64,000 bases of DNA from Candidatus Nomurabacteria bacterium (GTDB lineage Bacteria; Patescibacteriota; Saccharimonadia; JAGOAT01). Position 1 is the first letter of the stretch. Every line of letters starts with the position of its first letter. A program made the position numbers and the translations under genes. Under the pieces are notes generated by a model. It was not told the origin of the DNA. It saw only the letters and a list, made by a program, of their open reading frames with translations, and did no database searches. Where the stretch lies: contig JACKGM010000001.1 in the NCBI GenBank assembly GCA_020639315.1, forward strand, positions 225,878 to 289,877. Direction: 5' to 3'. This document shows, piece after piece, positions 12,983-43,161 of this stretch.

Positions 12983-15900
12983 ATGGACAAAGGTAATCGA
13001 CACGGTCATCATCGCAGTTTACTTGGATTGTTTGCTGGCAGTATGATGCTATTGCTACTTGCAGGAGTCTTCTTGATTGGCATTAGAATGCAACAAAACC
13101 AGTTGCCAGGAGGGATTGTCGCTCAGGTCGGTGACCAGAAGCTAGGTGAAGAGCAGTACAATGATTTGGTCAATGCTGGTCAAAATTATGGTAATGATGC
13201 CGAGACAGTCAAACAATCCTGGGAGGAGCTGAAGCGAATCGAGATTGCCAATAAGGAGATTGGTCTAGAAATACCAGACGAAAGTCTCAATCGACTGAGA
13301 GACGGGTTTGACCAGACCAACCTTGATACCAATATTGTTCTTCAAAAAAATCTTTACAAGGAGGCAACCGAGCTAGAGCTCAAACGCAAGTCGGAAGGAG
13401 AGTTTACGGGGGGAGTATTAGTCTTTGATGCTTTAGCTTTCACTGGAGACAGGATGGTGAGTGATCCAGATAAGTTAGCGGAGGCCAAGGCTTATGCCGA
13501 GGAAGTTCACCAGAAATTGGTCGATGGTACTTGGGATTTCGATCAGGCATATAGTGATCTAGTCGATGGGATTAAATTCAATTTCCCATCCTCACCGAAT
13601 AATAGTATTAAATTTTCCAAGGATAGTAGCTATACAGATTTAGAACAGGTTTATTATTATCAAGATCAAATTGTTGATTATCTCAAGCAGGGAAAAGAAG
13701 GGCTATCGGGTGTAATGGAGTATAAGTCTAATAATATCAACTCTGATGATACGGGAGAAGATACAACAGTAGGTTATTTTATAGCAGTAGTTGACAGTCA
13801 TACTTCCGCTCAATCAGATATTCAATCAAAGTACAATCAGCAGATTAGTTCTTTGACCCCTAATAATTACCTTGCCAAAATATTAAATTGGCTAGGTCAG
13901 TCAGCTGATGCCAATGTGATAACATATAATAACAGTTTATCTGGGGATAAACATAATATTAAAGGTGCCAACGACTTATTCGGTAATCTGGCAGGCAAAT
14001 ATAGAAACTTAAACGGGACTACATATAGCGGTCCAGTATTATGGACTGTTTCTTTGACTAAACAATCATCTCAGTTTTGGGATGCTAATACATCAAATGG
14101 TTTGAGGGGAAGTTTTAATCATAATGGCAAGGTCAACATGTTTAACTACAACAATGGATTGGTCAAAAGTGTCTTTGTTGATGTAAACAAATATAATTAC
14201 AAAGGTCTTACAATACCAACTACAAGTAATATATTTGATGAAGCAAGTGGATTTAACAATCCGGATTATTGTCAAGGAGTTTGCCCTTACTTGCCACCAG
14301 TAAATGCTGATAGTGCTGGGGCACCAAATAGCCTGGTCCTATTAACAAAGACTGGTGATATGAATATGTATCGTGATTTTGGTATTCGTTACCATTGTAA
14401 TGGGGGACAGACTAAGTTTATTGTGACTGCTAGGCCTGCTACTCCACAGAATATAGTTGCCAGTACGGTTGATGGAGGGAAAGTATTGGGTTTAACCGAT
14501 CATCTAATATCAAGGGTTTATGCAGAGGAAGCTGGATCTGGTGCAAGTGTAGGTGCCACTACTGACGCTGGAGTAGATGTAGTGTCAGGAGCAAACCAAC
14601 CTGGGCATCAGGGTGGTGGTAATCCCCCTACAGGTGAAGTAGCAGAGCCAAAACCTGGGCAAGAACCTCCCGAAGTTCCAGAGCCTGAAAACCCACTTCC
14701 ACCAGTTGAGCCACCAGTAATCAAGATGATCAAAGAAGTCAGAAACGCTAGTATTGAGGGCAGTGAATTCGTCGATGCCAATTTCGAGACATTGGAAGAA
14801 GCTAAGGCCAATGCTGAATCGGTCAGATTCCATCCCGGGGATACTATAGAGTACAAAATCACTGTCAACAATGAAGGTCCTGGTTTTGCTAGAGAAGTCA
14901 CAGTGACCGATGATGATTTGGCAGATTTTGCCGATTGGAATGAATTTGACGGGTATTTAGGGGATTTAGCAGAAGGGGAATCGAAAGAACTATTAATTAC
15001 TGGTAGGATTAAGTCAGATTATGATTTTAGTCAGGCTGCTGATTTGTACCAAAAGAATATCGCTAATACTACTTGCAAATATGATGGGCTAGCTGACAGC
15101 GTCAAGATTTTAGCCAATAGTGATTTAATATCCCAACTAACTAGTCAATTTGGAGTTGCACAAAATCAGATCGATGATTATTTAAATGAGAACGGATTAA
15201 CTGATAAGGTTAGTGGTGACCAGGACTGTCAGCCAGTCTCCGACCCAGCTCATATTTCACCAAAAGTAGTCGACCTCACCATACTCAAACAAGTAGCAAA
15301 CCTCACCGAAACCCCATTCCTCTCCCCAGGCACAAGTCCCTACTACCTCAGTGATGGTCCTATCTACTATGATGCAGATAGTATAGACAATGCAGTCTCC
15401 TTCGGTCCTAGTGAAGAGATAGAGTACCGTATAGAGATAATAAACAACGGTCCAGACGAAGCCACCTCTATCAGCTTCACTGATCCTGATCTCCCAGATG
15501 AGCTAGTAGACTGGGAGTCAGACGGCTGGATCAACGCTGAGACTGGTGAAACCGTATCCTCAGGAGATACCATCTTCCCAATCCCAGCCGAAGGAGCTCC
15601 GACTGAATTCCTCTGGCCTGAAGAGTCCAAGACGATTGATCCTGAGACCAAAGCAGAAACCACAGTCAACAATATCACTGAAGGTAAGAGAGTCAGAATA
15701 GTCCTAACCAAGAAAGGTAGAATCAAGAACGACCTAGCTAATACCGATTGGTTCCAGTCTAATACTGCTCACCAAAACACTGCAGAAGTCTCTACTATCA
15801 ATCCAGAAACCAACTATGACAACAATACCAACGATGCCTACATCGACCCCAAGGTCACAGACATCATCATCGGTAAAGTCGGTCAGACTGGTAATGACAC

Positions 15901-18136
15901 TGGTCTAGCAGGTAAAGAACTAACTTGGACGATTAGAGTAGTCAACAATGGCAAAGACTCAGCTATCTCTCTCGTAGACAATGGAGGAATCAAGCTAATC
16001 GACTACCTCAACCTCAAAGACACCTACAATGAAACAGTTACCTATCAATGTGTCCCTGCCTATGCCTGCAGTGTCCCAACCGGAGAAATCAACTCCACTG
16101 ACAATCCCGAAGGTATCCTAGACCTAGAACTCTACCTCGGCCCTGGCTTTGGAGACACCGAGCAAGTAGACTTCATCGATATCCTCTCAGATGAGGAGCT
16201 GTCAGCCAACCAAACCGACACTACCACCAACAACACCACCACCAACACTGACACCACCCAAACCACCAATACTGATCTAACCACCCTCCCCGTCTGTGAG
16301 ACTGGTAGATTCATCGGTATTAACAAGGCTACTGACACTACTACAGGCTTCAACCCCGATATCAACGAGGATGGCAATGGAGACCTCTATGTTCTCTTCA
16401 ATACCAATTGCTTTAGCTCCTACCCTGACCTCAGCCACTTCGAGCTAACAGACCTCTCCCTTAGCAGTGATGAAGTAGTCAACTACCTCACCCAGTATCA
16501 AGGTGGTAAAATTGCTTACTATCAAACCCCTACTCACCTAAACACCACCAATCAAGTAGACATCCAAATCACCGCTAGACTAGCTGACCATGTCACCTAT
16601 GGTGATGATGTCACTACTCAAGCAGTAGATGAGATCTGTAATCCTAGTGACAAGAACAACCCTGATCAAAAAGTCCATGTCGAAAAGACCGAAACCGTAG
16701 CCTGGGAATTGTCACTAGACAATAACACCGCTCCCCTAAGATGTATCCCAGTAATGCTCTGTTACAACGAAGATGGTCAAGCCTTAGCTAGCTATCCCGG
16801 TAAAGAAGGAGAAGACTTCTATCTCTCATTCGTCGGAGTAGACAATGAAGGTAACAAACTCTATGATCAATCTCTAGATGAACTAATCGCTAGAGATGAC
16901 TTAGCAGGACTAGATGTGATCTGTCGTAAGCCTACTACCTGTGAGCTTAAAGTAACGCGGACGATAGTACTAGCCAATGGTACAGAAGAAACCACTGATG
17001 TCGAAGTCACCGAACTATTTGATGGCTCAGCTGCTGGTGCTGATACCACTGACCTCGGATACTACAACTTTAGCCTAGAGTGTCAAAACCTCGAAGACGG
17101 ACAATCCCCCAACCTCACGATTGAAGTCATCCGCCGTCTCTTCGGTCCCTACTTCGCGATCGAAGATGGTTCAGCCACAGTGCTCGGGGAAATAGTCAAA
17201 GGTGTCTATCCTGAAGACAATGACCTAGACATCACTCGTCATACCCACATCCTGACCGCTACCAATGAAATCTCTTCAATCTTCTGCTCACTAACCGAGA
17301 TCATGGCAGCCGGAGAGAGTGTAGACTGTACTAGTCCTAGTGACCTAGCTGGAGCCGGATACCCAATCCGTCTAGACGGAGGTAGCAAGGACAACTTTGT
17401 CAATGTACTTGACTCAATAGAGAGTCTAATCGCAGAACCAGACTCCTCCCCCTATGAAGTAGTTACTATTAACAACCTAAACCAAATCCCCCTTGACCTC
17501 AGTGATGGTAAGAGCCCAGACTTCGAACCTGATCCCAACTCCACCACTACCCCAGTCCCTTACCCCACCCTCTATGTCTATGATGGAGATCTAGAGATCT
17601 CAGCTAGTCAAGCTATGCACTACAATGCAGGTCTAGCTACTATCTACGTCAGGGGTAATGTCTACATCAATGGAGACATCATCAGAGATGACAATACAGT
17701 GATAGAAGACATAGATGAGTATCCCAACCTAGGTATTATCTCTACTGGCAATATCTACATCAGACCAGACACCTCCAAATCAGTAGAGACTCCCCAAGTA
17801 ATTGACGCCAGTCTCTTCGCCCAAGGTATGATCGAAACAGCCTACCGTCAAACCACTCAAACCCCAATCCCCGAATACTATACCAACCAACCCCTAATCT
17901 TCCATGGTACAGTAGCCTCCAAGGGAGATGAGAGTGTCCCAGGAGTCAAAGACCCAATCACCAATCAAGTCTATGCCTTCAAACTAAACAGGACCAATGT
18001 CTCAGTCACCCTAGGACAAGACTGTAACAATACTCAAGTCTCTGAATGCTTTGCACCAGACAACTCAATCTTTATTGCTACTCCTCCGGGGTTTGAGGAT
18101 CGGTTGGGGGAGACTAATGGAGGGCTTAGCTACTAA
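12983..18136 (+). CDS. Giant modular surface protein paralog 2 (1717 aa). It has an N-terminal TM anchor, DUF11-like modules, a Thr/Asn-rich linker and the shared C-terminal domain.
   Basis: ATG with GGAGGG RBS. TM LLGLFAGSMMLLLLAGVFLIGI. DUF11-like motifs VRFHPGDTIEYKITVNNEGPGFAREVTVTDDDL and VSFGPSEEIEYRIEIINNGPDEATSISFTDPDLP. The last 2.9 kb is identical to tracts in the genes ending at 25163 and 33326. Confidence 0.85.
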   Translation: MDKGNRHGHHRSLLGLFAGSMMLLLLAGVFLIGIRMQQNQLPGGIVAQVGDQKLGEEQYNDLVNAGQNYGNDAETVKQSWEELKRIEIANKEIGLEIPDESLNRLRDGFDQTNLDTNIVLQKNLYKEATELELKRKSEGEFTGGVLVFDALAFTGDRMVSDPDKLAEAKAYAEEVHQKLVDGTWDFDQAYSDLVDGIKFNFPSSPNNSIKFSKDSSYTDLEQVYYYQDQIVDYLKQGKEGLSGVMEYKSNNINSDDTGEDTTVGYFIAVVDSHTSAQSDIQSKYNQQISSLTPNNYLAKILNWLGQSADANVITYNNSLSGDKHNIKGANDLFGNLAGKYRNLNGTTYSGPVLWTVSLTKQSSQFWDANTSNGLRGSFNHNGKVNMFNYNNGLVKSVFVDVNKYNYKGLTIPTTSNIFDEASGFNNPDYCQGVCPYLPPVNADSAGAPNSLVLLTKTGDMNMYRDFGIRYHCNGGQTKFIVTARPATPQNIVASTVDGGKVLGLTDHLISRVYAEEAGSGASVGATTDAGVDVVSGANQPGHQGGGNPPTGEVAEPKPGQEPPEVPEPENPLPPVEPPVIKMIKEVRNASIEGSEFVDANFETLEEAKANAESVRFHPGDTIEYKITVNNEGPGFAREVTVTDDDLADFADWNEFDGYLGDLAEGESKELLITGRIKSDYDFSQAADLYQKNIANTTCKYDGLADSVKILANSDLISQLTSQFGVAQNQIDDYLNENGLTDKVSGDQDCQPVSDPAHISPKVVDLTILKQVANLTETPFLSPGTSPYYLSDGPIYYDADSIDNAVSFGPSEEIEYRIEIINNGPDEATSISFTDPDLPDELVDWESDGWINAETGETVSSGDTIFPIPAEGAPTEFLWPEESKTIDPETKAETTVNNITEGKRVRIVLTKKGRIKNDLANTDWFQSNTAHQNTAEVSTINPETNYDNNTNDAYIDPKVTDIIIGKVGQTGNDTGLAGKELTWTIRVVNNGKDSAISLVDNGGIKLIDYLNLKDTYNETVTYQCVPAYACSVPTGEINSTDNPEGILDLELYLGPGFGDTEQVDFIDILSDEELSANQTDTTTNNTTTNTDTTQTTNTDLTTLPVCETGRFIGINKATDTTTGFNPDINEDGNGDLYVLFNTNCFSSYPDLSHFELTDLSLSSDEVVNYLTQYQGGKIAYYQTPTHLNTTNQVDIQITARLADHVTYGDDVTTQAVDEICNPSDKNNPDQKVHVEKTETVAWELSLDNNTAPLRCIPVMLCYNEDGQALASYPGKEGEDFYLSFVGVDNEGNKLYDQSLDELIARDDLAGLDVICRKPTTCELKVTRTIVLANGTEETTDVEVTELFDGSAAGADTTDLGYYNFSLECQNLEDGQSPNLTIEVIRRLFGPYFAIEDGSATVLGEIVKGVYPEDNDLDITRHTHILTATNEISSIFCSLTEIMAAGESVDCTSPSDLAGAGYPIRLDGGSKDNFVNVLDSIESLIAEPDSSPYEVVTINNLNQIPLDLSDGKSPDFEPDPNSTTTPVPYPTLYVYDGDLEISASQAMHYNAGLATIYVRGNVYINGDIIRDDNTVIEDIDEYPNLGIISTGNIYIRPDTSKSVETPQVIDASLFAQGMIETAYRQTTQTPIPEYYTNQPLIFHGTVASKGDESVPGVKDPITNQVYAFKLNRTNVSVTLGQDCNNTQVSECFAPDNSIFIATPPGFEDRLGETNGGLSY
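15265..18107. repeat. Copy 1 of the ~2.9-kb near-identical coding module (two DUF11-like domains, TN-rich linker, beta-rich domain and C-terminal domain).
   Basis: Matches 22215-25152 and 30385-33315 base for base, except for an in-frame ~81-nt shorter (ACC/AAC)-rich linker at about 16200-16265. Confidence 0.9.
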
Positions 18137-18150
18137 TATCTAGGTAAATA

Positions 18151-19980
18151 ATGTCAATCAAAACAAAAATATTAGCAGGAGGTTTGGTTGCTAGCCTGAT
18201 CTTAGTAGTGATTGGCTTTGGTTACTATAGCCAGTTGAGCCAAGGATTGATCAAGCTAGGGGCTAGCTATCTAGATCAAGCTTACCTTGCCAGTCGAGTA
18301 GAGCTAGCTGAAGATTACGGGGTTGATGCTAGGACTGCTCTAAGAGCCAGTGCAGATTTTGATCAGTATTATCAGATTTCTAGAGAATTAGGGCTCGAGA
18401 TTACAGAGCAAGATTTAAGGGACACCGGGTATTATCTAGAGCAAGAATATAGAGAAAACATTTTATTTAGGGCCAATACATTTAAAAGAGCCTTGGATAT
18501 TAAGGTAGAGGGTAGATCTAGGGGGCAGTACCAAGGAGCTCTTTTTACATTTCCAATCGTTAGCTATGACAACCAAGAAGGGGTGATTAGGAGCGCTACT
18601 GCTGCGTCCAAACAATATGCCCTAGACCAAGCAAACCAATACCGTGAAGCGATTGCTTCAGGAAAAGACCCCGAGGTCTTGATCGAGCAAATCAAGTCAG
18701 ATCCTAGGCTAGATTTGCCGATGGCGGATAATAGCTCAAGATTAGTAGGCTACAAAGAAAATGAAAGCTGGCAAAATATCCTTGGCGCTTATCATGAGGA
18801 TGTTATTGCTGAGCTGGAGAGAGGGGTAGATCCTGGACTAGGTGAAGTAAAGTTGGCCTATAGTTACCGGGAGGATCCAGCAGATCAAGAGGAGTTTATG
18901 TATTACTTTATCGATATCGCTGAGCACGAGCCAAAGGATTCGGAGATAGATCAACTCTACCAGAGCAAGCTAGCAGATAAGAGCTTGTTACTAAGCCTGC
19001 TAAATAAGCTTGATCATAGTGACCTAGAAATAGTACCAGAAGTCTATGCGGATGAGAGTAGTAACCATCAGGCCACAGAGTCGATACGCAATCAAATGAT
19101 TGCTGCTAATCCTAGAGCAAGATTGTTTGGTGATGTCCAGGGTCAGGTACTTGGTAGTGATAACAAAGGAGTATTTGGGGCTATTGTCAAAGTGACTTTT
19201 GAGATACAAGTATCAAATTGTCTAGAGTGTGACTGGGCTTTTGTTCGGGCTAAGGATATCTTGACACCGGCAGAAGTGGCAGCAGTCAAGCAGGGTACTC
19301 TCCAGTCTATCGGTAGTTCTGCCAATGAATTTGCCCCAAGGTACAAAGAGACAAGTATTGAACTAGTCACAGATGAGGAAGGCTGGTGGTCACTCAGTAG
19401 TATTGGGCTACTAGTCGACTGTAATACATCTGGAGGACACCCTCCGACTAAGATTAAGTACAAGGTATATGATATTTTTGATGGAGATATTTCGGATTTG
19501 CCTAGTAGTATCGGTGAGGCTGATCTCAACTATGTAGGGGTCAATTCGGTTACTAGTATAGTTGGCGGCTCTGCTCCTACCCAAAGTATCGGGACTAGCC
19601 AGGCGGGGATAGTCAATGTCGGTGGAATCAATGTAGCACAGTCGATTGCCGGTAATCTAGCTAAAATGCTTGATGCCGCCAAGGCCGACGGGGTCAATTT
19701 ATCAGGAGGTGGATATCGATCAAATGCGACCCAAGTACAGCTGAGGATAAGCCACTGTGGATCTTCAAACTATGCAATTTACCAGATGCCATCCAGCCAG
19801 TGTAGTCCACCGACTGCTAGGCCAGGTAAATCGAACCATGAGAAGGGCTTAGCAATCGATTTTAATAATTGTAGTAGTCGGAGTACTGCTTGCTATAGAT
19901 GGCTCAACGCTAACGCAAATCAGTATGGATTTTATAATTTGCCGAGTGAATCTTGGCACTGGTCGGTCAATGGCAAATAG
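18151..19980 (+). CDS. Membrane-anchored secreted protein (609 aa) with a C-terminal peptidase M15 (VanY / D-Ala-D-Ala carboxypeptidase-like, LAS superfamily) domain. Its N-terminal ~450 aa are homologous to the N-terminal module of the giant protein at 25278.
   Basis: TM LAGGLVASLILVVIGFGYY. Zinc-peptidase motifs SNHEKGLAIDF (SxHxxGxAxD) and ESWHWS in the last 90 aa. Protein-level similarity to ORF 25278 residues ~140-520 (NCLECDWAFV vs NCAECDSAFV; GWWSLSSIGLLVDCN vs GYFSLSAIDIVFDCN). Confidence 0.65.
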   Translation: MSIKTKILAGGLVASLILVVIGFGYYSQLSQGLIKLGASYLDQAYLASRVELAEDYGVDARTALRASADFDQYYQISRELGLEITEQDLRDTGYYLEQEYRENILFRANTFKRALDIKVEGRSRGQYQGALFTFPIVSYDNQEGVIRSATAASKQYALDQANQYREAIASGKDPEVLIEQIKSDPRLDLPMADNSSRLVGYKENESWQNILGAYHEDVIAELERGVDPGLGEVKLAYSYREDPADQEEFMYYFIDIAEHEPKDSEIDQLYQSKLADKSLLLSLLNKLDHSDLEIVPEVYADESSNHQATESIRNQMIAANPRARLFGDVQGQVLGSDNKGVFGAIVKVTFEIQVSNCLECDWAFVRAKDILTPAEVAAVKQGTLQSIGSSANEFAPRYKETSIELVTDEEGWWSLSSIGLLVDCNTSGGHPPTKIKYKVYDIFDGDISDLPSSIGEADLNYVGVNSVTSIVGGSAPTQSIGTSQAGIVNVGGINVAQSIAGNLAKMLDAAKADGVNLSGGGYRSNATQVQLRISHCGSSNYAIYQMPSSQCSPPTARPGKSNHEKGLAIDFNNCSSRSTACYRWLNANANQYGFYNLPSESWHWSVNGK

Positions 19981-20857
19981 AGGAGTGCAGGTCATCGCTA
20001 GCATTGTCCTGGTAGGCTTAACTATCCTAGGAGGATACCACTACTGGCGATCAAATCAATCAGTCAGTGCAAAATTGATCCTGGAGGAGTATCAGGACTT
20101 TTATCATTTAGAAGAAAATCGGTACCTTGGTGACAAAGGAGAGGGAAGGTTGGATTTGATCCAGTTGGACGGAGACAGGCCTAGGGTCGATCAGTCGATT
20201 GATTATATCAGCTATTTTGTAATCCCTAGTCAGGTGATTATTTTTGACCAGGCTGGAGTCAGTGCATACTCTACTAGAGACTTTTCTAAGCAGAACCAAG
20301 ACGGTCAGTATATTCTGGGCAATCTTGACGGGGATAATATTTACCTTGATCAAGCTGGGAGCAATGACGATGATACTCTGGTCAGACTAGATTATAGGCT
20401 CAGGGGTGAACTTGTCGGTGAAGAGTTGGTGACCAGCTTGGAGGTAGCACCGATTTTTGCTAATATCGGTACCAATCATTATAGGCTGGTCTTTGATCAG
20501 TTGACCGCTACACTTGCAGTCACCCCGATCGACAAAGACTTTGAAGCGTCTGGTCAGACTGTCAGCTACAACAATGTCAAGACTTGGCGAATCGAGCAAG
20601 ATTATCTCGCGATTGACTTGTTGGATGATAGTGGTCAGAGATTTGTGGCTGAAGATTTGCTTGAGCTAAACACTACACCCTTGATCGGGCTTTGTGTTGA
20701 TTATCAATTGGGCAAGGATTACCTTTATCTAGATTATAAGACTAGACTTGATTTGCCAGCTGAGATCGATAATCAGTCCAAAGTTTATTGTCATCAAGAT
20801 AATATTTATATTTGGCTTGGACAAAAGCTATATGAGGCAAAAAGAGATGAAGTCTAG
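19970..20857 (+). CDS. Hypothetical N-terminally anchored protein (295 aa). The start overlaps the upstream stop by 11 nt (ATGGCAAATAG).
   Basis: ORF in the track begins at 19925. The internal ATG at 19970 (MANRGVQVIASIVLVGLTILGG) gives a signal anchor and an 11-nt overlap, as seen at other junctions here. No recognisable domain. Confidence 0.5.
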   Translation: MANRGVQVIASIVLVGLTILGGYHYWRSNQSVSAKLILEEYQDFYHLEENRYLGDKGEGRLDLIQLDGDRPRVDQSIDYISYFVIPSQVIIFDQAGVSAYSTRDFSKQNQDGQYILGNLDGDNIYLDQAGSNDDDTLVRLDYRLRGELVGEELVTSLEVAPIFANIGTNHYRLVFDQLTATLAVTPIDKDFEASGQTVSYNNVKTWRIEQDYLAIDLLDDSGQRFVAEDLLELNTTPLIGLCVDYQLGKDYLYLDYKTRLDLPAEIDNQSKVYCHQDNIYIWLGQKLYEAKRDEV

Positions 20858-25163: not shown

Positions 25164-25185
25164 TTTTCTGGAATCAGGCTAATGA

Positions 25186-25250
25186 GGGGGGGCATTGTCA
25201 CCCTCCGAATTCTCCTTGTCCTGTCATTCTCCAAAATCCCCTATTCCCCT
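25186..25250. repeat. Degenerate remnant of the MITE-like family 1 element in the short spacer between two giant genes.
   Basis: gggcattgtcaccctccgaattctccttgtcctgtcattctcc matches the gggcattgtcatcctccgaattctccttgtcctgtcatcctccgaag unit seen at 33590 and 34880. Confidence 0.6.
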
Positions 25251-25277
25251 TGCCAAGACTATGGCGGTTGTGGTTAA

Positions 25278-28200
25278 ATGAAAAAGAGAAGTTTATATAA
25301 ACCAAATAAAAGTGAGGGAAAGTTGAGTAATACAAAGTTTAATTTGAGGCATTTACTACTAAGTCTAAGTGGTGTCTTGGTAGTCGTGGCTATCAGCATT
25401 GGGATAGTCAAATTCATCGACTATAGCAATCCCGTGGTCGTCAGTATTGACGGAGTCGAGATCCGAGAAAACACCTTTGACAAAAATATCGAGCTAGGTA
25501 AAGACTACGACAATGGTAGAGAAGACATAGTCAATGCCACAATCGACCTCGAAGCTTGGAAGAAAATCAACCAAAACCTCGGAGTTGTCCCTCCCGACTC
25601 CTTTATCATGGAGTATGCTAGTCGATATACCGAGCAGGCAGTCAAAGAAAACGTAATCCTCCAAAAGAACCTCTACAAATACGCCACCGAGCAAATGATG
25701 CTCAATCAATACTACGGGCTCTATGATGGCGCAGTATTTGTCTTCCCATATGCCAATTTTGATCAGGGAGCTACAACGGAAGAGCAAGCCTACGCCAAGC
25801 AAAAAGCTGAGGAGTACCTAGCGAGATTTTCTAGTGGCGAAGATCCCAGATCACTAATCGACGAGATCTATGCAGATAGGAGCCTAGAGCCAGCCGTCGA
25901 TGCCCAAAATCCATCGACAATCCTCGGATTTTACGAAGATCAGAGCCCCTATGATCAATACAGGATGGGCTACTCAGAGCTACTCAATGATATTTGGTCG
26001 ATCGAGAATCGTGGTACTAGTCAGATAGTCGATATCCCTGAAGATAGAGAAAATCGTTCTGGTGGATACTACTATTTCTACAATATCAATGATTATCAGT
26101 CTCCGAGGCTAGATATCCAAGAGAGCTATGATACAGAAGTCGAGAGAATAGCTACAGACTTGACTACCCAAGCAGACAAGATCAATCGAGTCGGTCAGAG
26201 TACGGTATCCTTCCTCGGTAATAAACTCAAGGATTTAGCAATCCAGCCAGCTTACGCCAAGGATACTGTCGAGGCTCATCAGTCTGGGCCAAGTGTGCTA
26301 TTAAAGCTGATGAACGATAAGAGCTATGAGGGTAGGACACTGATCGAGCGGTTCGCTGATGTCTCTGGTAGGGTATTGGGTAGCAATGGAGATCCTTACC
26401 CCAATGCTATCGTCAGGATTAAATACAAAGATGTGCTTAAGCAAAATTGTGCAGAGTGTGATAGTGCCTTTGTCGATGTCGGTAAGATTGGTTTGGGTTC
26501 ATCTACCAATGAAAACGCTCCTCGAGTAGACTACCGCAAGGCAGGTATAGGTAAGCTCCATGATACTCCTGAGATGCAGGGTTATCACGACTATGTCGAG
26601 GTGATTTCAGGGGAGAGTGGGTATTTCTCTCTATCTGCTATTGACATAGTGTTTGACTGTAATCGCGTCAAGACAGAGTACGGAGATGGTCATCCAATAG
26701 ATGTCAATATGGAAGCCTTGGATGTCTATAAAGATGCAGAGATATCACTGGGAGGGCTAGATAGTATCAACGATCAGATAGCGATAGTCGATACTGAGCA
26801 AGTAGGGGGTAATATCGACCTTGCTTTCGCCAAGCCAGAGCATGATAGTGGATACTTGGATCGACTAGCCAGCACAGTCGGAAGTATCTTCCAGCTCGCC
26901 CGGATACCTTTAGTCCAAGGGGCGCAAGGGGGTTATGGGGAGTTAAAACCCGATGAGAATAATCAACTTGTGGACCTAGAGGATAAGAGATTCGGCCATT
27001 ATAGGGATAAGATTCAATATTTTAGAGAGAAAAGTGAGATGAATCTTGACTCTAATTTCGCAGCTGAACAATATAATTCCTATGATCCAGCTGGAAACAT
27101 AGATAAAGAGACAATGGCTTCAATTTTACTTGATACAGTAAACGGATATCTTACAGACCCGGATTTCCAGATTAATAAAGATCAGGCGCAGGGTTTAGTA
27201 GGTCTTTTATTTGCATGTGATGTTATTTATCAGGAGGGGGATAATGAAAACTATTGGTACTATGCCAATCTTATAGACAGTGATGGTAATCATCCACTGG
27301 ACTGCATGTCGCATTTTGTAGTCGAGGATGTCTTGATGGCAATTGGGATGGACCTAAGGGTAGATAATGTCTATACCAACCCTACCTTCCCCCATGCTTT
27401 CCAGGTTGATTTTCGGGAACCCCCTGAGAATTGGCCTAATGATCGGGAAGGAACAGGATCAGCAAAGGATGGGTTTGTAGTATTTTGCGAGGCAACAGGT
27501 TACAAAACAAACGATGCTAGGGATAGGTGTATACTGGATAAGTCTGATACAGAGCAAGCAACCGACGAATCAGACGACGATAACTTTGCTGAACCTAACA
27601 AACTTGCAAGGCAATGTAGCTATTTTCTTTGGGAGTTAGACCAAGCAAGGTACGAAGCGCTAGAAGGTAGAGATTGTACGAGCCTTGTGGATAAGGGAGA
27701 AGTAGGTTCTCTTAATGGAATATCAAGACGGACATTATGTGTTGATCGTTGGGGGTATACGTTTGGTAGCAACCAATGTGTCCCACCTGATGGTGTAACA
27801 TACCCTTCTAGGCGGGAAAGTTTTTGTAAAAATATAACAAATTTCATATTTAGTAATAATAGATGCAATATGTCAGGATACGAGCAAGGCGCAAGTCTGG
27901 AGCTAGCAGAAGAGTATAAAAATGCAGTATTTGGAGATGCAGTTAATGCTTCTCCGGCTCAACTTTGCTCCGACTTTTACGTAGCATTAGAGATTATGCC
28001 ACCTGGGACATATAATAGTTATGAAATGCTTAGTCAATATGGGCTGACGAATGGGAAGTATGTCTGTGATCCTAACAATTATGAGTTTAACTCTGAGACA
28101 GAGAAATATCAACTTAAAGAGAGAGGCTCTTCCTCTGACAATGAGTCTCCTAACGACGGTGTTAGCCCTGAGGTAGGCTCTACTACAGAAGACCGCCGTT

Positions 28201-31200
28201 CTTCTCTTTGTTCACAGTATTTTATCGATAAGTTGGCAGGGAAGGACTTAGATGGGTACAATGACCTAGAGTGTAACTTGAAGGAGGCTTACGATAGCTC
28301 AGATGGTGGTGACGGTCTTTCGGTAAAAGAAACATGTGTATTAATCAATCTAACTTTAAATTCTACAATAAATGATGACGGTACAACCTGTAGTAATATT
28401 GGTACAACTGGAGCTAAGATATGTACTGGCTTGGGGGCTACCACATCAGACGATACTTGCGATATGGAAAAAATAAAGAGTATTAGTGACATCGAGAGAG
28501 GAAAGCTGTTTTTTTCAGCCTATTACGCTACGCTAGAAGACGATGAACGTAAGGAAGATTATATATGTATCGGTAAATATCGTCAGCTATATACTATGCC
28601 TCACGATAACTTAGAAGCAAGCGACTTTAATGCAATAGATTGTGTAGTCCCAGAGGACGGTGGTAATTCACAAGATAGTAATATTGAAACCCCACTGGTC
28701 TCCCCAAATGATAGTTTTACCGAGACAGAGGGAGATGACGGAGTCAAGTCAATTAAGTTGGCTGAAGGATTAGATGATTACCAATCTTATTGTGAACAGG
28801 GTCTGGAGGGAACCTATCTAGATACAGATACTGACGATGACAAGCCTGGGGTTTGTAATGGTATAGATTCTACAAAAATCGATCAGCAATTCTGTACTGC
28901 AGCCGGGGGGACAGTACTCACAGACGAAACCAACACCGAGACTGATAGTGAAGATGAGGATAGTAATGCAGAAGGCACCAATACTACTTGGATCGATAGG
29001 GTGATCGATAGGGTGTTTGCCGCTTCTGATGAAGAAGATGACGATAACTCTACAGGTAGTGGTGATACTACGGCTGAGACCTACGGCTGTGACTTTAGTG
29101 AGGCGGGAGATTTTGACAAAGATAAGATCGAGGCGGCTTTGACCGAGCTGGCTAATACCCCTACAACCCCCGCCAACCCAAACAGCTCCGCAGGTGGTAG
29201 CAATAGCTCCGCCAATGCCGGCGGTGCCCCCAACGGTGTTGCTATTAGTACTGCTACAGGTAAGCCATGTAACCAAAATGAAATAAGACTCAAGAGCAAT
29301 GGCTGTGGACAGAGACAAACACTGGCGACGAGACAACCCAACCAAATAAGGACAAACGGCAATTCCCCTACTCCCCAAACTCCACCACCAGGAGGAGGTA
29401 CTACTACAGGTGAGCCTCCTCAGGCTCCTGATGATGGCCTAGATCCCCCCGAGGGGCCCGATGTCCCTGATCAGCCCGATGACCTTCCAGAGAGACCTGT
29501 AGTCTCGATCAAAAAATACGTCGGTCACACAGTAGATGATCTCAGTGATGCCCAAGACTCAGCTACAGCTGTCAAGTTCTATCCTGGTCAATCGATAGTC
29601 TATCAAGTAGTAATTACTCATCAGTCTGGAGCAGATGCGACCAAAGTAGTCTGGTCTGACGAAAACCTTGATGGATTTGTCTCAGGTGGACTGATGGAAC
29701 TAGGAGATTGGACTAGTGATACTCAAGTAGATGACATCTTCTCATTCCCTCTCAAACAAGGAGAAGAGATCACCTTCTTAAGAGAAGGCACAATCTCCCT
29801 AGATGCTGGTCTCTTCGGTCTAGACCAAGAATCAGTTCTTAACTCAACTGCTGCCCTTGAAAACATCGCCAGTGTCGATGAACTCAATGATGCTGATCCT
29901 GGGATTGCTAGTGGTGATCCTGCTAATATCTTGCCGACGATAGCCGAAGTCAAGCTCGATAAGCTAGTCAGCAATATTAGTGACAATATCTTGGATCAGC
30001 CAGCCGATGACTTAGAACATACTGTCTTTTTCGGTCCTGGAGAAGAAATCGAATACAAAATGGTCATCACCAACGAGGGTCCAGACGGAGCAGTCGGTCT
30101 GATTTGGGCTGATGATAGTCTGCCGACTTTTGCTACCTTTGAAGGCTGGAAGCTTGAGGATGGCTCAGATGCTCCCGAGATGCTATTTGACCCTTCAGTA
30201 TCAGAAGATACACTAGAGTCAGGAGAATCAATTACCCTGATCAACCGTGGTCGGATCAATCCTGATGCTGGAGACTTCGGAGTCGGTACTAGCCTAGACC
30301 CCCGGGGTGGCTATGAGAATATAGCCTCAGTCGATCCTCTGACCCACGATAGCAACCTAGAAAACAATACCAACCCAGCCTGGATCTCCCCCAAGCTAGT
30401 CGACCTCACCATCAAAAAACAAGTCTCCAACCTCACCGAAACCCCATTCCTCTCCCCAGGCACAAGTCCCTACTACCTCAGTGATGGTCCTATCTACTAT
30501 GATGCAGATAGTATAGACAATGCAGTCTCCTTCGGTCCTAGTGAAGAGATAGAGTACCGTATAGAGATAATAAACAACGGTCCAGACGAAGCCACCTCTA
30601 TCAGCTTCACTGATCCTGATCTCCCAGATGAGCTAGTAGACTGGGAGTCAGACGGCTGGATCAACGCTGAGACTGGTGAAACCGTATCCTCAGGAGATAC
30701 CATCTTCCCAATCCCAGCCGAAGGAGCTCCGACTGAATTCCTCTGGCCTGAAGAGTCCAAGACGATTGATCCTGAGACCAAAGCAGAAACCACAGTCAAC
30801 AATATCACTGAAGGTAAGAGAGTCAGAATAGTCCTAACCAAGAAAGGTAGAATCAAGAACGACCTAGCTAATACCGATTGGTTCCAGTCTAATACTGCTC
30901 ACCAAAACACTGCAGAAGTCTCTACTATCAATCCAGAAACCAACTATGACAACAATACCAACGATGCCTACATCGACCCCAAGGTCACAGACATCATCAT
31001 CGGTAAAGTCGGTCAGACTGGTAATGACACTGGTCTAGCAGGTAAAGAACTAACTTGGACGATTAGAGTAGTCAACAATGGTAAAGACTCAGCTATCTCT
31101 CTCGTAGACAATGGAGGAATCAAGCTAACCGACTACCTCAACCTCAAAGACACCTACAATGAAACAGTTACCTATCAATGTGTCCCTGCCTATGCCTGCA

Positions 31201-33326
31201 GTGTCCCAACCGGAGAAATCAACTCCACTGACAATCCCGAAGGTATCCTAGACCTAGAACTCTACCTCGGCCCTGGCTTTGGAGACATGGAGCAAGTAGA
31301 CTTCATCGATATCCTCTCAGATGAGGAGCTGTCAGCCAACCAAACCGACACTACCAACAACAACACCACCACCAACAACAACACTAACACCACTAACACC
31401 AATAACACCAACACCACCACCAACACTAACACTACCAACAACACTACCAACAACACTGACACCACCCAAACCACCAATACTGATCTAACCACCCTCCCCG
31501 TCTGTGAGACTGGTAGATTCATCGGTATTAACAAGGCTACTGACACTACTACAGGCTTCAACCCCGATATCAACGAGGATGGCAATGGAGACCTCTATGT
31601 TCTCTTCAATACCAATTGCTTTAGCTCCTACCCTGACCTCAGCCACTTCGAGCTAACAGACCTCTCCCTTAGCAGTGATGAAGTAGTCAACTACCTCACC
31701 CAGTATCAAGGTGGTAAAATTGCTTACTATCAAACCCCTACTCACCTAAACACCACCAATCAAGTAGACATCCAAATCACCGCTAGACTAGCTGACCATG
31801 TCACCTATGGTGATGATGTCACTACTCAAGCAGTAGATGAGATCTGTAATCCTAGTGACAAGAACAACCCTGATCAAAAAGTCCATGTCGAAAAGACCGA
31901 AACCGTAGCCTGGGAATTGTCACTAGACAATAACACCGCTCCCCTAAGATGTATCCCAGTAATGCTCTGTTACAACGAAGATGGTCAAGCCTTAGCTAGC
32001 TATCCCGGTAAAGAAGGAGAAGACTTCTATCTCTCATTCGTCGGAGTAGACAATGAAGGTAACAAACTCTATGATCAATCTCTAGATGAACTAATCGCTA
32101 GAGATGACTTAGCAGGACTAGATGTGATCTGTCGTAAGCCTACTACCTGTGAGCTTAAAGTAACGCGGACGATAGTACTAGCCAATGGTACAGAAGAAAC
32201 CACTGATGTCGAAGTCACCGAACTATTTGATGGCTCAGCTGCTGGTGCTGATACCACTGACCTCGGATACTACAACTTTAGCCTAGAGTGTCAAAACCTC
32301 GAAGACGGACAATCCCCCAACCTCACGATTGAAGTCATCCGCCGTCTCTTCGGTCCCTACTTCGCGATCGAAGATGGTTCAGCCACAGTGCTCGGAGAAA
32401 TAGTCAAAGGTGTCTATCCTGAAGACAATGACCTAGACATCACTCGTCATACCCACATCCTGACCGCTACCAATGAAATCTCTTCAATCTTCTGCTCACT
32501 AACCGAGATCATGGCAGCCGGAGAGAGTGTAGACTGTACTAGTCCTAGTGACCTAGCTGGAGCCGGATACCCAATCCGTCTAGACGGAGGTAGCAAGGAC
32601 AACTTTGTCAATGTACTTGACTCAATAGAGAGTCTAATCGCAGAACCAGACTCCTCCCCCTATGAAGTAGTTACTATTAACAACCTAAACCAAATCCCCC
32701 TTGACCTCAGTGATGGTAAGAGCCCAGACTTCGAACCTGATCCCAACTCCACCACTACCCCAGTCCCTTACCCCACCCTCTATGTCTATGATGGAGATCT
32801 AGAGATCTCAGCTAGTCAAGCTATGCACTACAATGCAGGTCTAGCTACTATCTACGTCAGGGGTAATGTCTACATCAATGGAGACATCATCAGAGATGAC
32901 AATACAGTGATAGAAGACATAGATGAGTATCCCAACCTAGGTATTATCTCTACTGGCAATATCTACATCAGACCAGACACCTCCAAATCAGTAGAGACTC
33001 CCCAAGTAATTGACGCCAGTCTCTTCGCCCAAGGTATGATCGAAACAGCCTACCGTCAAACCACTCAAACCCCAATCCCCGAATACTATACCAACCAACC
33101 CCTAATCTTCCATGGTACAGTAGCCTCCAAGGGAGATGAGAGTGTCCCAGGAGTCAAAGACCCAATCACCAATCAAGTCTATGCCTTCAAACTAAACAGG
33201 ACCAATGTCTCAGTCACCCTAGGACAAGACTGTAACAATACCCAAGTCTCTGAATGTTTTGCACCGGACAACTCAATCTTTATCGCTACTCCTCCGGGGT
33301 TTGAGGATCGGCTTAGCTCGGAGTGA
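25278..33326 (+). CDS. Giant modular surface protein paralog 4 (2682 aa). Its N-terminal anchor and ~500-aa module are homologous to the M15-peptidase protein. It also has a long acidic Cys-rich region, module A, an extra DUF11-like module, the 2.9-kb shared module and the shared C-terminal domain.
   Basis: ATG at 25278. TM LLLSLSGVLVVVAISIGIV. DUF11-like motifs VKFYPGQSIVYQVVITHQSGADATKVVWSDENL and VFFGPGEEIEYKMVITNEGPDGAVGLIWADDSLP. Identical tracts as described above. Confidence 0.85.
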   Translation: MKKRSLYKPNKSEGKLSNTKFNLRHLLLSLSGVLVVVAISIGIVKFIDYSNPVVVSIDGVEIRENTFDKNIELGKDYDNGREDIVNATIDLEAWKKINQNLGVVPPDSFIMEYASRYTEQAVKENVILQKNLYKYATEQMMLNQYYGLYDGAVFVFPYANFDQGATTEEQAYAKQKAEEYLARFSSGEDPRSLIDEIYADRSLEPAVDAQNPSTILGFYEDQSPYDQYRMGYSELLNDIWSIENRGTSQIVDIPEDRENRSGGYYYFYNINDYQSPRLDIQESYDTEVERIATDLTTQADKINRVGQSTVSFLGNKLKDLAIQPAYAKDTVEAHQSGPSVLLKLMNDKSYEGRTLIERFADVSGRVLGSNGDPYPNAIVRIKYKDVLKQNCAECDSAFVDVGKIGLGSSTNENAPRVDYRKAGIGKLHDTPEMQGYHDYVEVISGESGYFSLSAIDIVFDCNRVKTEYGDGHPIDVNMEALDVYKDAEISLGGLDSINDQIAIVDTEQVGGNIDLAFAKPEHDSGYLDRLASTVGSIFQLARIPLVQGAQGGYGELKPDENNQLVDLEDKRFGHYRDKIQYFREKSEMNLDSNFAAEQYNSYDPAGNIDKETMASILLDTVNGYLTDPDFQINKDQAQGLVGLLFACDVIYQEGDNENYWYYANLIDSDGNHPLDCMSHFVVEDVLMAIGMDLRVDNVYTNPTFPHAFQVDFREPPENWPNDREGTGSAKDGFVVFCEATGYKTNDARDRCILDKSDTEQATDESDDDNFAEPNKLARQCSYFLWELDQARYEALEGRDCTSLVDKGEVGSLNGISRRTLCVDRWGYTFGSNQCVPPDGVTYPSRRESFCKNITNFIFSNNRCNMSGYEQGASLELAEEYKNAVFGDAVNASPAQLCSDFYVALEIMPPGTYNSYEMLSQYGLTNGKYVCDPNNYEFNSETEKYQLKERGSSSDNESPNDGVSPEVGSTTEDRRSSLCSQYFIDKLAGKDLDGYNDLECNLKEAYDSSDGGDGLSVKETCVLINLTLNSTINDDGTTCSNIGTTGAKICTGLGATTSDDTCDMEKIKSISDIERGKLFFSAYYATLEDDERKEDYICIGKYRQLYTMPHDNLEASDFNAIDCVVPEDGGNSQDSNIETPLVSPNDSFTETEGDDGVKSIKLAEGLDDYQSYCEQGLEGTYLDTDTDDDKPGVCNGIDSTKIDQQFCTAAGGTVLTDETNTETDSEDEDSNAEGTNTTWIDRVIDRVFAASDEEDDDNSTGSGDTTAETYGCDFSEAGDFDKDKIEAALTELANTPTTPANPNSSAGGSNSSANAGGAPNGVAISTATGKPCNQNEIRLKSNGCGQRQTLATRQPNQIRTNGNSPTPQTPPPGGGTTTGEPPQAPDDGLDPPEGPDVPDQPDDLPERPVVSIKKYVGHTVDDLSDAQDSATAVKFYPGQSIVYQVVITHQSGADATKVVWSDENLDGFVSGGLMELGDWTSDTQVDDIFSFPLKQGEEITFLREGTISLDAGLFGLDQESVLNSTAALENIASVDELNDADPGIASGDPANILPTIAEVKLDKLVSNISDNILDQPADDLEHTVFFGPGEEIEYKMVITNEGPDGAVGLIWADDSLPTFATFEGWKLEDGSDAPEMLFDPSVSEDTLESGESITLINRGRINPDAGDFGVGTSLDPRGGYENIASVDPLTHDSNLENNTNPAWISPKLVDLTIKKQVSNLTETPFLSPGTSPYYLSDGPIYYDADSIDNAVSFGPSEEIEYRIEIINNGPDEATSISFTDPDLPDELVDWESDGWINAETGETVSSGDTIFPIPAEGAPTEFLWPEESKTIDPETKAETTVNNITEGKRVRIVLTKKGRIKNDLANTDWFQSNTAHQNTAEVSTINPETNYDNNTNDAYIDPKVTDIIIGKVGQTGNDTGLAGKELTWTIRVVNNGKDSAISLVDNGGIKLTDYLNLKDTYNETVTYQCVPAYACSVPTGEINSTDNPEGILDLELYLGPGFGDMEQVDFIDILSDEELSANQTDTTNNNTTTNNNTNTTNTNNTNTTTNTNTTNNTTNNTDTTQTTNTDLTTLPVCETGRFIGINKATDTTTGFNPDINEDGNGDLYVLFNTNCFSSYPDLSHFELTDLSLSSDEVVNYLTQYQGGKIAYYQTPTHLNTTNQVDIQITARLADHVTYGDDVTTQAVDEICNPSDKNNPDQKVHVEKTETVAWELSLDNNTAPLRCIPVMLCYNEDGQALASYPGKEGEDFYLSFVGVDNEGNKLYDQSLDELIARDDLAGLDVICRKPTTCELKVTRTIVLANGTEETTDVEVTELFDGSAAGADTTDLGYYNFSLECQNLEDGQSPNLTIEVIRRLFGPYFAIEDGSATVLGEIVKGVYPEDNDLDITRHTHILTATNEISSIFCSLTEIMAAGESVDCTSPSDLAGAGYPIRLDGGSKDNFVNVLDSIESLIAEPDSSPYEVVTINNLNQIPLDLSDGKSPDFEPDPNSTTTPVPYPTLYVYDGDLEISASQAMHYNAGLATIYVRGNVYINGDIIRDDNTVIEDIDEYPNLGIISTGNIYIRPDTSKSVETPQVIDASLFAQGMIETAYRQTTQTPIPEYYTNQPLIFHGTVASKGDESVPGVKDPITNQVYAFKLNRTNVSVTLGQDCNNTQVSECFAPDNSIFIATPPGFEDRLSSE
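30385..33315. repeat. Copy 3 of the ~2.9-kb near-identical coding module. It carries the expanded TN linker at about 31340-31470.
   Basis: Direct comparison. A few SNPs near the end (e.g. aatacccaagtctctgaatgttttgcaccggac vs aatactcaagtctctgaatgctttgcaccagac). Confidence 0.9.
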
Positions 33327-33510: not shown

Positions 33511-33996
33511 TGTCATCCTCCAGTTAAATACTGGATCTCCGGTATTACCCTAAAGGGTAATCCGAAGATGACACGGGAAGGGCATTGTCATCCTCCGAAT
33601 TCTCCTTGTCCTGTCATCCTCCGAAGTTCGGAGAACTTACGGGGGATCCAGTATTTTACATCGTGCATTGTCATCCTCCGAAGATCCGAAGGAGCTTACG
33701 GGGGATCCAGTATTTTGCATTTCTGGGATTCAATTCAAATACTGGATCTCCGGTATTTCTCTCTGGGTAATCCGAAGATGACGCGGGAAGGGCATTGTCA
33801 TCCTCCGAAGTTCGGAGAACTTACAGGGGATCCAGTATCTTGCATTGCCTTGAGATTCAATTCAAATACTGGATCTCCGGTATTTCTCTAAAGAGAAATC
33901 CGAAGATGACAGGAGGAGGGCATTGTCATCCTCCGAAACTCCGAAGGAGTTTACGGGGGAACCAGTATTTTGCATCGTGCATTGTCATCCTCCGAA
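33511..33996. mobile_element. Cluster of MITE/REP-like family 1 elements in mixed orientations (at least 4 arm pairs). It ends about 30 nt upstream of miaA.
   Basis: Multiple AAATACTGGATCTCCGGTATT...CCGAAGATGAC arms and reversed TGTCATCCTCCGAAGTTCGGAGAACTTACGGGGGATCCAGTATTT arms. Confidence 0.75.
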
Positions 33997-34026
33997 TCTC
34001 TCTCCCTTTGTGCTACACTAGAGACA

Positions 34027-34764
34027 ATGAACCCCCTAAGGCTAATCGGCATTGTCGGACAGACTGGATCGGGCAAGACAAGCCTGAGTTACCAAATTGC
34101 TGATCATATTATCAAACAAGGTCTAAAGCCGGTAATTATACTAGCAGACTCAAGAACTCTTTTTAAGGAGCTAGATATTGCTAGCGCCAAGCCTAGCAAG
34201 TCTCAGCTATCAACTTATAAACACCAGATGGTAGATATCCTAAATCCTGGTCAAAAATATACAGTCTACCAGTATCAGCAAGCGGTCAAGACCATCTTTG
34301 GAAATCTAGCAGACAACGAGATTCCTATCTTGGTCGGCGGTAGTGGGCTGTATTTTGATGCTACTATTTACGACTACCAATTCCCTCAAGACAAGTCTGA
34401 TCGAGATAGAAATACTACCAAGTATCAGACTAAGATTTTTGGCTTTCATTACCCAAGGCAGGAATTGAGAGCAAGGCTTGCTGAGAGGCTAGATTTGATG
34501 ATTGAAGAGGGCTTGATCAAGGAAGTCGAGGAAATCATGGTAGCTTATGGGTCTAACTGTATTGCCCTGAGGTCTACTACAGCCAATCGAGCTCGGGATT
34601 ATTTGCTCGGCCTAGAGACTATGGAGGAGACTAGGAGACTGATTGTCCGTGACAATCTTAGCCTTGCCAAACGACAATTCACTTGGTTTAAAAGAAACCG
34701 GGAGATCAGTTGGAACCTACCTTTAGCTCAGATACTTGGTGAGGTTGATAGCTTGGTACAGTAA
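34027..34764 (+). CDS. miaA: tRNA dimethylallyltransferase (MiaA).
   Basis: N-terminal P-loop IGIVGQTGSGKTS. Overall MiaA-like length and motifs. Start placed at the ATG at 34027 (MNPLRL) rather than the track's 33970, which lies inside repeat sequence. Confidence 0.75.
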   Translation: MNPLRLIGIVGQTGSGKTSLSYQIADHIIKQGLKPVIILADSRTLFKELDIASAKPSKSQLSTYKHQMVDILNPGQKYTVYQYQQAVKTIFGNLADNEIPILVGGSGLYFDATIYDYQFPQDKSDRDRNTTKYQTKIFGFHYPRQELRARLAERLDLMIEEGLIKEVEEIMVAYGSNCIALRSTTANRARDYLLGLETMEETRRLIVRDNLSLAKRQFTWFKRNREISWNLPLAQILGEVDSLVQ

Positions 34765-34767
34765 TCA

Positions 34768-43029: not shown

Positions 43030-43161
43030 AGTCATCCTCCGAAACCCGCCTCTCTTCTGTCATCCTCCGAAGTTCGGAGAACTTACGGGGGATCCAGTAT
43101 CCGGCATTGTGCATTGTCATCCTCCGAATCCTCATAGAGGATTACAGGGGATCCAGTATTT
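43030..43161. mobile_element. MITE/REP-like family 1 element (two reversed arms) between rodZ-like and recA.
   Basis: tgtcatcctccgaagttcggagaacttacgggggatccagtat and gtcatcctccgaatcctcatagaggattacaggggatccagtatttt. Confidence 0.7.

Follow-up and report, generated by a model that had tools for sequence, protein, structure and literature searches.

A cluster of giant DUF11/CLIPPER genes with a shared 3′ end

The stretch of DNA analysed here, referred to as the window, spans 64,000 nucleotides (nt) of contig JACKGM010000001.1 (assembly GCA_020639315.1, Candidatus Nomurabacteria bacterium), from the candidate phyla radiation (CPR, or Patescibacteria). According to the listing of open reading frames (ORFs) and a comparison of the window with itself, positions 8992-33326 hold six genes in the same orientation, in the order D, A, a VanY-like gene, a small gene, B and C (Table 1). 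D, A, B and C encode proteins of 1309-2682 amino acids (aa), in each of which a simple hydropathy scan, rather than a dedicated predictor, finds a single hydrophobic segment at the N-terminus. The only family recognised in these proteins by Pfam or NCBIfam is DUF11/CLIPPER (PF01345), which is present in all four with scores of 27-49 bits versus a cut-off of 24.6, and TIGR01451 is matched as well. Here we describe a nearly identical 3′ module that these genes have in common.

Comparison of the module copies by self-BLAST and MAFFT confirmed the claim of the initial annotation that A, B and C contain three near-identical copies of 2.8-2.9 kb, with an identity of 99.6-99.9%. The copies are separated by six (A versus B), ten (A versus C) and four (B versus C) substitutions, beyond which the sole difference is an indel that preserves the reading frame, located in a stretch of Thr and Asn codons. 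A repeat of such length and identity cannot have arisen by chance. The upstream limits given earlier for the three copies (15265, 22215 and 30385) had to be revised: near-identity sets in 34-51 nt further downstream, and the intervening sequence shows only partial similarity. The conserved peptide string thought to follow these limits is present, reading QVSNLTETPF in B and C and QVANLTETPF in A, but perfect identity begins within it, at the L-T-E codons, and not before it. Between B and C, identity begins at about 22254/30417 and runs to 25181/33344, which is 18 nt beyond the stop codon. Of the two DUF11-like domains assigned to the module, the one that comes first is a DUF11/CLIPPER domain by the Pfam threshold (28.2 bits versus 24.6), whereas the second, at 17.2 bits, falls below it.

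Three further elements had been overlooked. Gene D holds the last 983 nt of the module at 99.4-99.9% identity, and it can be aligned colinearly with the whole module, the amino acid identity being 27% in the pair of CLIPPER domains and 37% in the Cys-rich region before it rises to 99.7% in the final 329 residues. In all four genes, the identity ends about ten codons before the stop codon, and over the final codons D resembles A, and B resembles C. Upstream of the module, B and C share a 435-nt tract (tract x) with seven mismatches, six of which are synonymous. In C alone, tract x is separated from the module by an additional CLIPPER-like domain (domain y), which is 28% identical to module domain 1 at the amino acid level. 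The variable sites of the C-terminal domain (CTD) are all synonymous (6/6), as are the four substitutions private to C (4/4); the latter are confined to 43 nt of the 2883-nt module, an arrangement that four random sites would produce with P ~5e-6.

Table 1 Features of the gene cluster, repeat arrays in the window and contigs from other datasets
Feature	Window positions	Strand	Description
Gene D	8992-12921	+	1309 aa; exact match to NCBI MCB9834603.1
CTD tract in D	11903-12885	+	983 nt; 1, 2 and 6 differences from A, B and C
Gene A	12983-18136	+	1717 aa; giant N-terminally anchored DUF11/CLIPPER protein; MCB9834604.1
Module copy A	15299-18103	+	2805 nt; CLIPPER domain, DUF11-like second domain, short Thr/Asn linker, Cys-rich region, CTD
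Short Thr/Asn linker, A	16214-16267	+	18 aa, TDTTTNNTTTNTDTTQTT; 78-nt indel site after 16242
VanY-like gene	18151-19980	+	609 aa; C-terminal VanY/M15 D-Ala-D-Ala carboxypeptidase domain; within the cluster
Hypothetical protein gene	19925-20857	+	310 aa; one N-terminal hydrophobic segment; between the VanY-like gene and B
Gene B	20748-25163	+	ORF from TTG 20748
Tract x in B	21796-22230	+	One CLIPPER-like domain; equals C 29503-29937
Module copy B	22266-25148	+	2883 nt; identity to C spans 22254-25181
Long Thr/Asn linker, B	23181-23312	+	44 aa; extra 78 nt at 23210-23287, equivalent starts up to 23215
Gene C	25278-33326	+	2682 aa; largest paralog
Tract x in C	29503-29937	+	Equals B 21796-22230
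Domain y	29938-30416	+	Extra CLIPPER-like domain, C only, between tract x and module
Module copy C	30429-33311	+	2883 nt
Long Thr/Asn linker, C	31344-31475	+	Base-identical to the linker of B
C-private substitutions	33242-33284	+	33242, 33257, 33266, 33284
recA	43241-44239	+	MCB9834616.1
TTCGGAGGATGACA arrays	8107-8890, 25196-25235, 33586-35049, 37541-38028, 43030-43128, 44752-45070, 48121-48293, 51180-51321, 55515-55924, 58889-59200, 61669-62067		
Contig L002			Related-species genome GCA_017983775.1; syntenic, 76-85% identical; ends 127 nt into the module
Contig L003	12809-15626		Genome GCA_020428505.1, labelled Ca. Saccharibacteria
Contig L005	11733-11902 + 32329-33392		JGI 3300009772 Ga0116162_10111745, 1234 nt
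Contig L006	18715-21902		Genome GCA_020428505.1
Contig L007	32980-33521		Genome GCA_020428505.1; carries the four C-private substitutions and the downstream flank of C
Contig L008	18074-21855		Logan SRR28385527
Contig L009	18082-21812		Logan SRR12358676

Evidence for probable gene conversion between the paralogs

The edge of the module coincides with a sharp step in divergence. In windows of 50 codons, the third-position identity changes from about 0.35 (range 0.24-0.50) upstream of the edges to 1.00 inside for every pair of genes, and synonymous sites outside the module are saturated. Purifying selection as the sole cause of the identity is ruled out because the synonymous sites within the module are also identical. 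Furthermore, the paralogs are closer to one another than to an ortholog. Of the 127 nt at the beginning of the CTD, no more than one is variable among the four genes, as opposed to 10 sites at which the D ortholog of a related species, taken from its metagenome-assembled genome (MAG; L002), departs from them. In the D-specific part, the two genomes are about 76% identical.

The shared tracts form a nested mosaic, in which about 2.85 kb is common to A, B and C, the last 983 nt is also found in D, and the 435-nt tract x is restricted to B and C. The divergence amounts to 0.1-0.36% in the module and 1.6% in tract x, about ten times that of the module. The greater divergence of tract x, the clustering of the C-private substitutions and the nesting of the tracts point to several events that differed in age and extent. 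As D is colinear with the module yet diverged until its last 983 nt, its 3′ block was overwritten in a pre-existing homolog and not newly attached. Recombination between the paralogs is strongly indicated by these data, and it is probable that D, A, B and C are old paralogs whose near-identical 3′ module stems from gene conversion, i.e. concerted evolution. This process, to which the data point most directly and which would extend to a fourth gene, had not been named in the initial annotation.

In the mechanism that we propose, the 3′ part of one gene would be pasted over those of the others by recent and repeated, non-reciprocal, RecA-dependent homologous recombination. The resulting concerted evolution would keep the distal stalk and tip module uniform in the four proteins, with the membrane-proximal parts staying distinct. 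The homologous-recombination enzyme required for gene conversion is encoded by the recA gene in the same window. The difference in linker length would trace back to one event, the gain or loss of 78 nt in frame at a 5-nt microhomology, which may have occurred in A, or else in the B/C lineage and then been passed between B and C.

Tract edges and the Thr/Asn linker

Every tract edge is located at a domain junction. This applies to the start of the module, both ends of tract x, the start of the CTD in D and the ends about ten codons before each stop codon. The motifs found at the edges are D-L-T-x-x-K-Q-V, which belongs to the first strand of the CLIPPER domain, and E-V-I-R-R-L-F-G, which opens the CTD. 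The coincidence of the edges is explained equally well by conserved junction motifs that offer homology and by selection against chimeras with broken domains. The upstream boundaries had earlier been taken for a recombination hot spot; recombination is well supported, as described above, but a specific hot-spot sequence is not demonstrated by what are only two independent comparisons, and the phenomenon is better described as tract ends at domain junctions.

The length change in the linker is real and in frame, and all genes stay open, but its size is 78 nt (26 codons) and not about 81 nt as originally estimated; the peptides quoted at that time, 18 and 44 aa long, are correct. Besides this indel, the linker displays one substitution next to the gap. 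At the indel junction, a 5-nt microhomology (CAACA) allows the break to be placed equally well at six positions, a configuration that slipped-strand or microhomology-mediated deletion or duplication would be expected to leave. The tract itself is an imperfect mixture of ACC, ACT, AAC and AAT codons. No long perfect repeat of a short unit is present in it, with Tandem Repeats Finder matches reaching only 66-78%, and since the longest perfect trinucleotide run comprises only three units, the linker lacks the hallmark of a hypermutable contingency tract. Only two length states were seen, short in A and long in B and C. As the tracts of B and C are base-identical and one event suffices to account for the difference from A, there is no sign that the length has changed repeatedly. 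Two metagenome scans (with peptide patterns and with a 30-mer adjacent to the linker) and a word-indexed protein search, one such search being swamped by the low-complexity linker, found no second assembly that crosses the linker. Variation of stalk length through slippage in this tract, as put forward in the initial annotation, may occur, but the one indel is its only support. The long linker contains 10 N-x-S/T sequons and the short linker of A contains two; speculating from sequence alone, a change in linker length would alter the glycan load as well if the tract were glycosylated.

Alternative explanations

That the three copies represent an assembly duplication is contradicted by contigs from other datasets, which cover the unique stretches and stop at the repeat edges (Table 1). 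The repeat is real, given that independent contigs and the related-species MAG break at its edges, and it breaks short-read assemblies. The window nevertheless derives from a metagenome-assembled genome, in which repeats of 1-3 kb are typical trouble spots, and copies could in principle have been made or homogenised by the assembler or by polishing. Contig L005 could be viewed in the same light. It joins D-specific sequence to a CTD block that is 100% of the C type and to the downstream flank of C, and it is either a true recombinant or deletion product of D and C or an assembly chimera. If real, it would result from a direct-repeat recombination event that deleted about 20.4 kb containing A, the VanY-like gene, B and most of C. 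Against an artefact in the window stands the fact that each copy is joined in frame to distinct unique sequence on both sides and carries private substitutions or the indel. Moreover, the unique D-A and A-B intervals are spanned by contigs from other datasets that stop inside the repeats, and the related-species MAG also breaks 127 nt into the module. The C-private substitutions are present in two contigs from other datasets (L005 and L007), in the latter together with the downstream flank of C. We therefore regard an artefact as extremely improbable.

A repeat that is real could have originated without ongoing conversion if one or two duplications had placed a 2.9-kb block behind unrelated 5′ parts by illegitimate recombination. 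The 5′ parts of B and of A and C are indeed very different, and the three upstream edges are no more than about 45 nt apart, resembling a single ancestral junction. This scenario is nonetheless unlikely, considering that D is homologous to the whole module and near-identical to it only in the last 983 nt, that the extents and ages of the tracts differ (1.6% in tract x, and the clustered private substitutions of C), and that the sequence upstream of every edge is homologous but diverged, with the CLIPPER junction motif retained, as would be left by conversion between existing homologs. Even less probable, in our estimate, is programmed or high-frequency variation, in which the (ACC/AAC)n tract would be prone to slippage and would tune the stalk length, with dedicated recombination hot spots at the module edges. 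The indel is in frame and flanked by microhomology, the long tract has an internal periodicity of 42-48 nt that hints at past duplications, and variation in repeat length is known in surface proteins such as those with staphylococcal Clf/Sdr Ser-Asp regions. These features have to be set against a longest perfect run of three triplets, identical tracts in B and C for which one event accounts, the failure of two metagenome scans and a protein search to find a second assembly with another length, and edges at domain junctions, which selection alone would give.

Gene conversion as the origin of the module has weaknesses of its own. It is read from assembled sequence, in which the events are not seen directly, and short-read polishing of a long-read assembly, if used, could have slightly over-homogenised the copies. 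The comparison of paralogs with an ortholog spans only the 127 nt at which the related contig ends. On the protein side, the adhesin role is assigned by analogy, as the Cys region and the CTD have no family, PDB or PHROG match and a structure prediction with a mean confidence (pLDDT) of 32, and the CTD could instead attach the protein to the cell envelope or bind a partner. Finally, diversifying adhesins usually show the opposite arrangement to the conserved tip and variable membrane-proximal parts seen here.

Properties of the encoded proteins

The proteins encoded by D, A, B and C are very acidic and contain Cys, and they are best described, by inference and analogy, as adhesin-like exoproteins. 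The ratio of Asp and Glu to Lys and Arg is about 2.2-3 for the four complete proteins and 3.2 for the module segments, and the module contains 14 Cys residues, an even number. No C-terminal sorting signal of the LPXTG/sortase, type IX secretion system CTD, PEP-CTERM or a similar kind is present, and no sorting domain is recognised by Pfam or NCBIfam; the C-termini (...PPGFEDRLSSE or ...GELNSDEIVY) are free of any hydrophobic window. With a single N-terminal anchor and no C-terminal sorting signal, the module and its CTD should form the end of the protein that is farthest from the cell. A polymorphic toxin of the Rhs/CdiA type was also considered and rejected: the polarity is reversed, with variable N-terminal parts and an identical C-terminus, and there is no match to a toxin or immunity family.

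With regard to the Lys-Asn isopeptide bond and catalytic Asp/Glu of a CnaA-like Ig fold, an alignment of six CLIPPER copies contains an invariant Asp (D74, in TDxDL), a Lys in the first strand in five of the six, and an N-[TI]-A-x-V motif in about four of the six. An AlphaFold2 (AF2) model of CLIPPER domain 1, computed with five paralogous domains, reaches a pLDDT of only 56, and a Foldseek search with this low-confidence model against the PDB gave no match at E<0.2. The terminal part of the module is more elusive. At E values of up to 10, Pfam yields only Fibrinogen_aC (E = 0.53) for the Cys region and no match for the 332-aa CTD. NCBIfam searches with whole proteins (E up to 0.1) return DUF11-type repeats only, PHROGs give no match for the Cys region and the CTD, and the best PDB chain has E = 1.3. 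The AF2 model of the 610-aa region that follows the linker is unusable (pLDDT 32, pTM 0.24) owing to the lack of homologs.

A phmmer search of the Cys region and CTD against 1.84 billion representative proteins gave only five matches. Two of them (P0002 and P0003) are fragmentary sequences from this organism or a sister to it, and one (P0005, a VWA/SEA repeat protein) was rejected as a relative since its score is inflated by six repeats. For the remaining two, P0004 and P0006, the match extends over 80-90 aa within the beta-rich part, at 41% and 39% identity, respectively, and both share the motif ...ATIYV.G.VYI.G...IP.L.I...G.IYI.P... over this region. P0004 is a stand-alone protein of 417 aa (ENA ERZ1426531) and P0006 a 150-aa fragment; they are the sole distant relatives of the CTD and hint at a small undescribed family of beta-rich domains.

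Neighbouring genes and other repeats in the window

The protein encoded by D consists of an N-terminal hydrophobic anchor, an N-domain of about 300 aa that is shared among paralogs, DUF11/CLIPPER domains, the Cys-rich region and the CTD. In C, the anchor and the shared N-domain are followed by a long unique region, domains x and y, and then the module. B is devoid of the N-domain common to its paralogs, and its real start is likely to be ATG 20832 or 20847, either of which yields an N-terminus resembling a signal peptide. The VanY-like protein and the products of D, A and C have homologous N-domains, with an identity of only 19-26%. In the middle of the cluster, the VanY/M15 domain is thus fused to an N-terminal anchor domain of the type found in D, A and C, which suggests that the N-domain is a general membrane-proximal module of exported proteins in this organism. 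The NCBI annotation contains the VanY-like gene only as a 419-aa version. A family search with the small hypothetical protein between this gene and B gave no match. Promoter and terminator scans produced a signal no better than that of shuffled sequence and did not inform the operon structure. Two antisense ORFs, of 208 aa in D (11161-11787, minus strand) and 186 aa in C (28818-29378, minus strand), are most likely spurious by-products of skewed codon composition.

The giant ORF upstream of the cluster (58-7305), which enters from the window edge and encodes 2415 aa, contains five perfectly identical tandem repeats of 831 nt (277 aa) and a partial sixth (688-5012). Its counterpart in the related-species MAG has a single repeat unit and is split into ORFs of 731 and 777 aa. 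These repeats represent copy-number variation of a second surface-protein gene.

The window is also rich in a short dispersed repeat. The 14-mer TTCGGAGGATGACA occurs 73 times with up to two mismatches, versus 0.5 expected, and is also present in the related-species MAG (L002 9834-9916). Its arrays fill most of the larger intergenic regions with a unit of about 29 nt and higher-order units of 127 and 247 nt, and flip strand between regions (Table 1). It looks like a genome-wide repeat akin to repetitive extragenic palindromes or miniature inverted-repeat transposable elements. The idea that inverted arrays flanking the cluster mark the ends of a mobile island was rejected, as the motif is found in most of the larger intergenic regions.

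In one NCBI assembly, the DNA of the window is assigned to a Candidatus Nomurabacteria bacterium (locus tags H6792_..., proteins MCB9834602-616), and identical DNA is labelled Candidatus Saccharibacteria bacterium in GCA_020428505.1. With two such names attached to the same DNA, the taxonomic label within the CPR/Patescibacteria is unreliable. The species was not found in the GTDB-representative genome collection, where a contig scan gave only a chance match, to a Desulfovibrionaceae MAG.

Comparison with known adhesin families

Recombination is an ordinary and well-known mechanism in adhesin gene families; what is unusual here is the organism, an uncultured, ultra-small member of the CPR/Patescibacteria. 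The paralogous bab and hom genes of Helicobacter pylori have shared 3′ (and 5′) regions and form chimeras by intragenomic recombination and gene conversion (PMC4552749, PMC2795765). The present genes resemble babA/babB/babC and hom in that adhesin paralogs, or here putative ones, have homologous 3′ regions that recombination keeps, or here probably keeps, alike. However, the bab loci are dispersed, encode proteins of about 700 aa with a C-terminal beta-barrel anchor, and are phase-variable through frame-shifting perfect CT repeats, whereas the genes described here are adjacent and 4-8 kb long, their products have an N-terminal anchor and share the distal end, and their sole repeat tract is imperfect and in frame. 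The vomp locus of Bartonella quintana, a highly conserved tandem array of four adhesin paralogs that have conserved regions and can be lost from isolates through deletions in the array (PMC10936683), offers another parallel, and the D/C hybrid contig L005, if real, would be an analogous deletion product. Vomps, though, belong to the trimeric autotransporters; their 5′ regions are the conserved ones, they are anchored in the membrane at the C-terminus, and they have no homology to the proteins studied here.

DUF11 now goes by the name CLIPPER and is described as a stalk domain in fibrillar adhesins, CnaA-like and often with an isopeptide bond (PMC12617251). Like these adhesins, D, A, B and C are long secreted proteins in which DUF11/CLIPPER stalk domains are combined with other domains. 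They differ in having one to three CLIPPER domains per protein instead of long tandem arrays, an N-terminal anchor, no recognised adhesive or sorting domain, and terminal 600 aa that belong to no described family. The linker invites comparison with the Ser-Asp repeat region of the Clf/Sdr surface proteins of Gram-positive bacteria, a spacer whose length varies between genes and alleles. Both are low-complexity, in-frame codon-repeat spacers between functional domains. The Ser-Asp repeats, however, are long and built of fairly regular 18-nt units, while the Thr/Asn tract is irregular, comprises 18-44 codons and was seen in only two lengths. The family described here is therefore distinct from known ones in its organism, its protein architecture and the absence of a true phase-variable repeat.

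Implications for CPR epibionts

CPR/Patescibacteria live attached to other microbes, and giant surface proteins are prime candidates for host recognition. Giant DUF11-bearing membrane proteins have been proposed as host-attachment factors of the CPR bacterium Vampirococcus (PMC8080830), and the epibiosis of Saccharibacteria requires adhesins (PMC10633639). Almost nothing is known about the evolution of the genes for such proteins in the CPR. At the locus described here, ordinary homologous recombination would homogenise the distal part of four giant proteins in a reduced genome, and the exposure of this part at a tip that faces outward and an adhesive role towards the host or other cells would follow from the architecture and the parallels drawn above. 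The lineage-restricted region of 600 aa stands out as the part of these proteins under the strongest constraint to stay alike, and it would be a sensible first target for binding and structural studies. Short-read MAGs of this organism shatter exactly at the module, and gene families of this kind are consequently under-represented, in a systematic way, in public protein sets.

A more far-reaching proposal, which at present appears doubtful, is that the Cys-rich region and the CTD of about 330 aa constitute the host-binding head of a CPR epibiont, kept by gene conversion on several stalks and anchors that differ greatly in length, in proteins of 1309-2682 aa, and that direct-repeat recombination is active in natural populations, giving rise to D/C hybrids such as L005 and to alleles of different linker length. 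If so, cells would vary the reach of these proteins and the number of their genes while keeping the receptor specificity, a recombination-driven surface repertoire of a kind undescribed in Patescibacteria.

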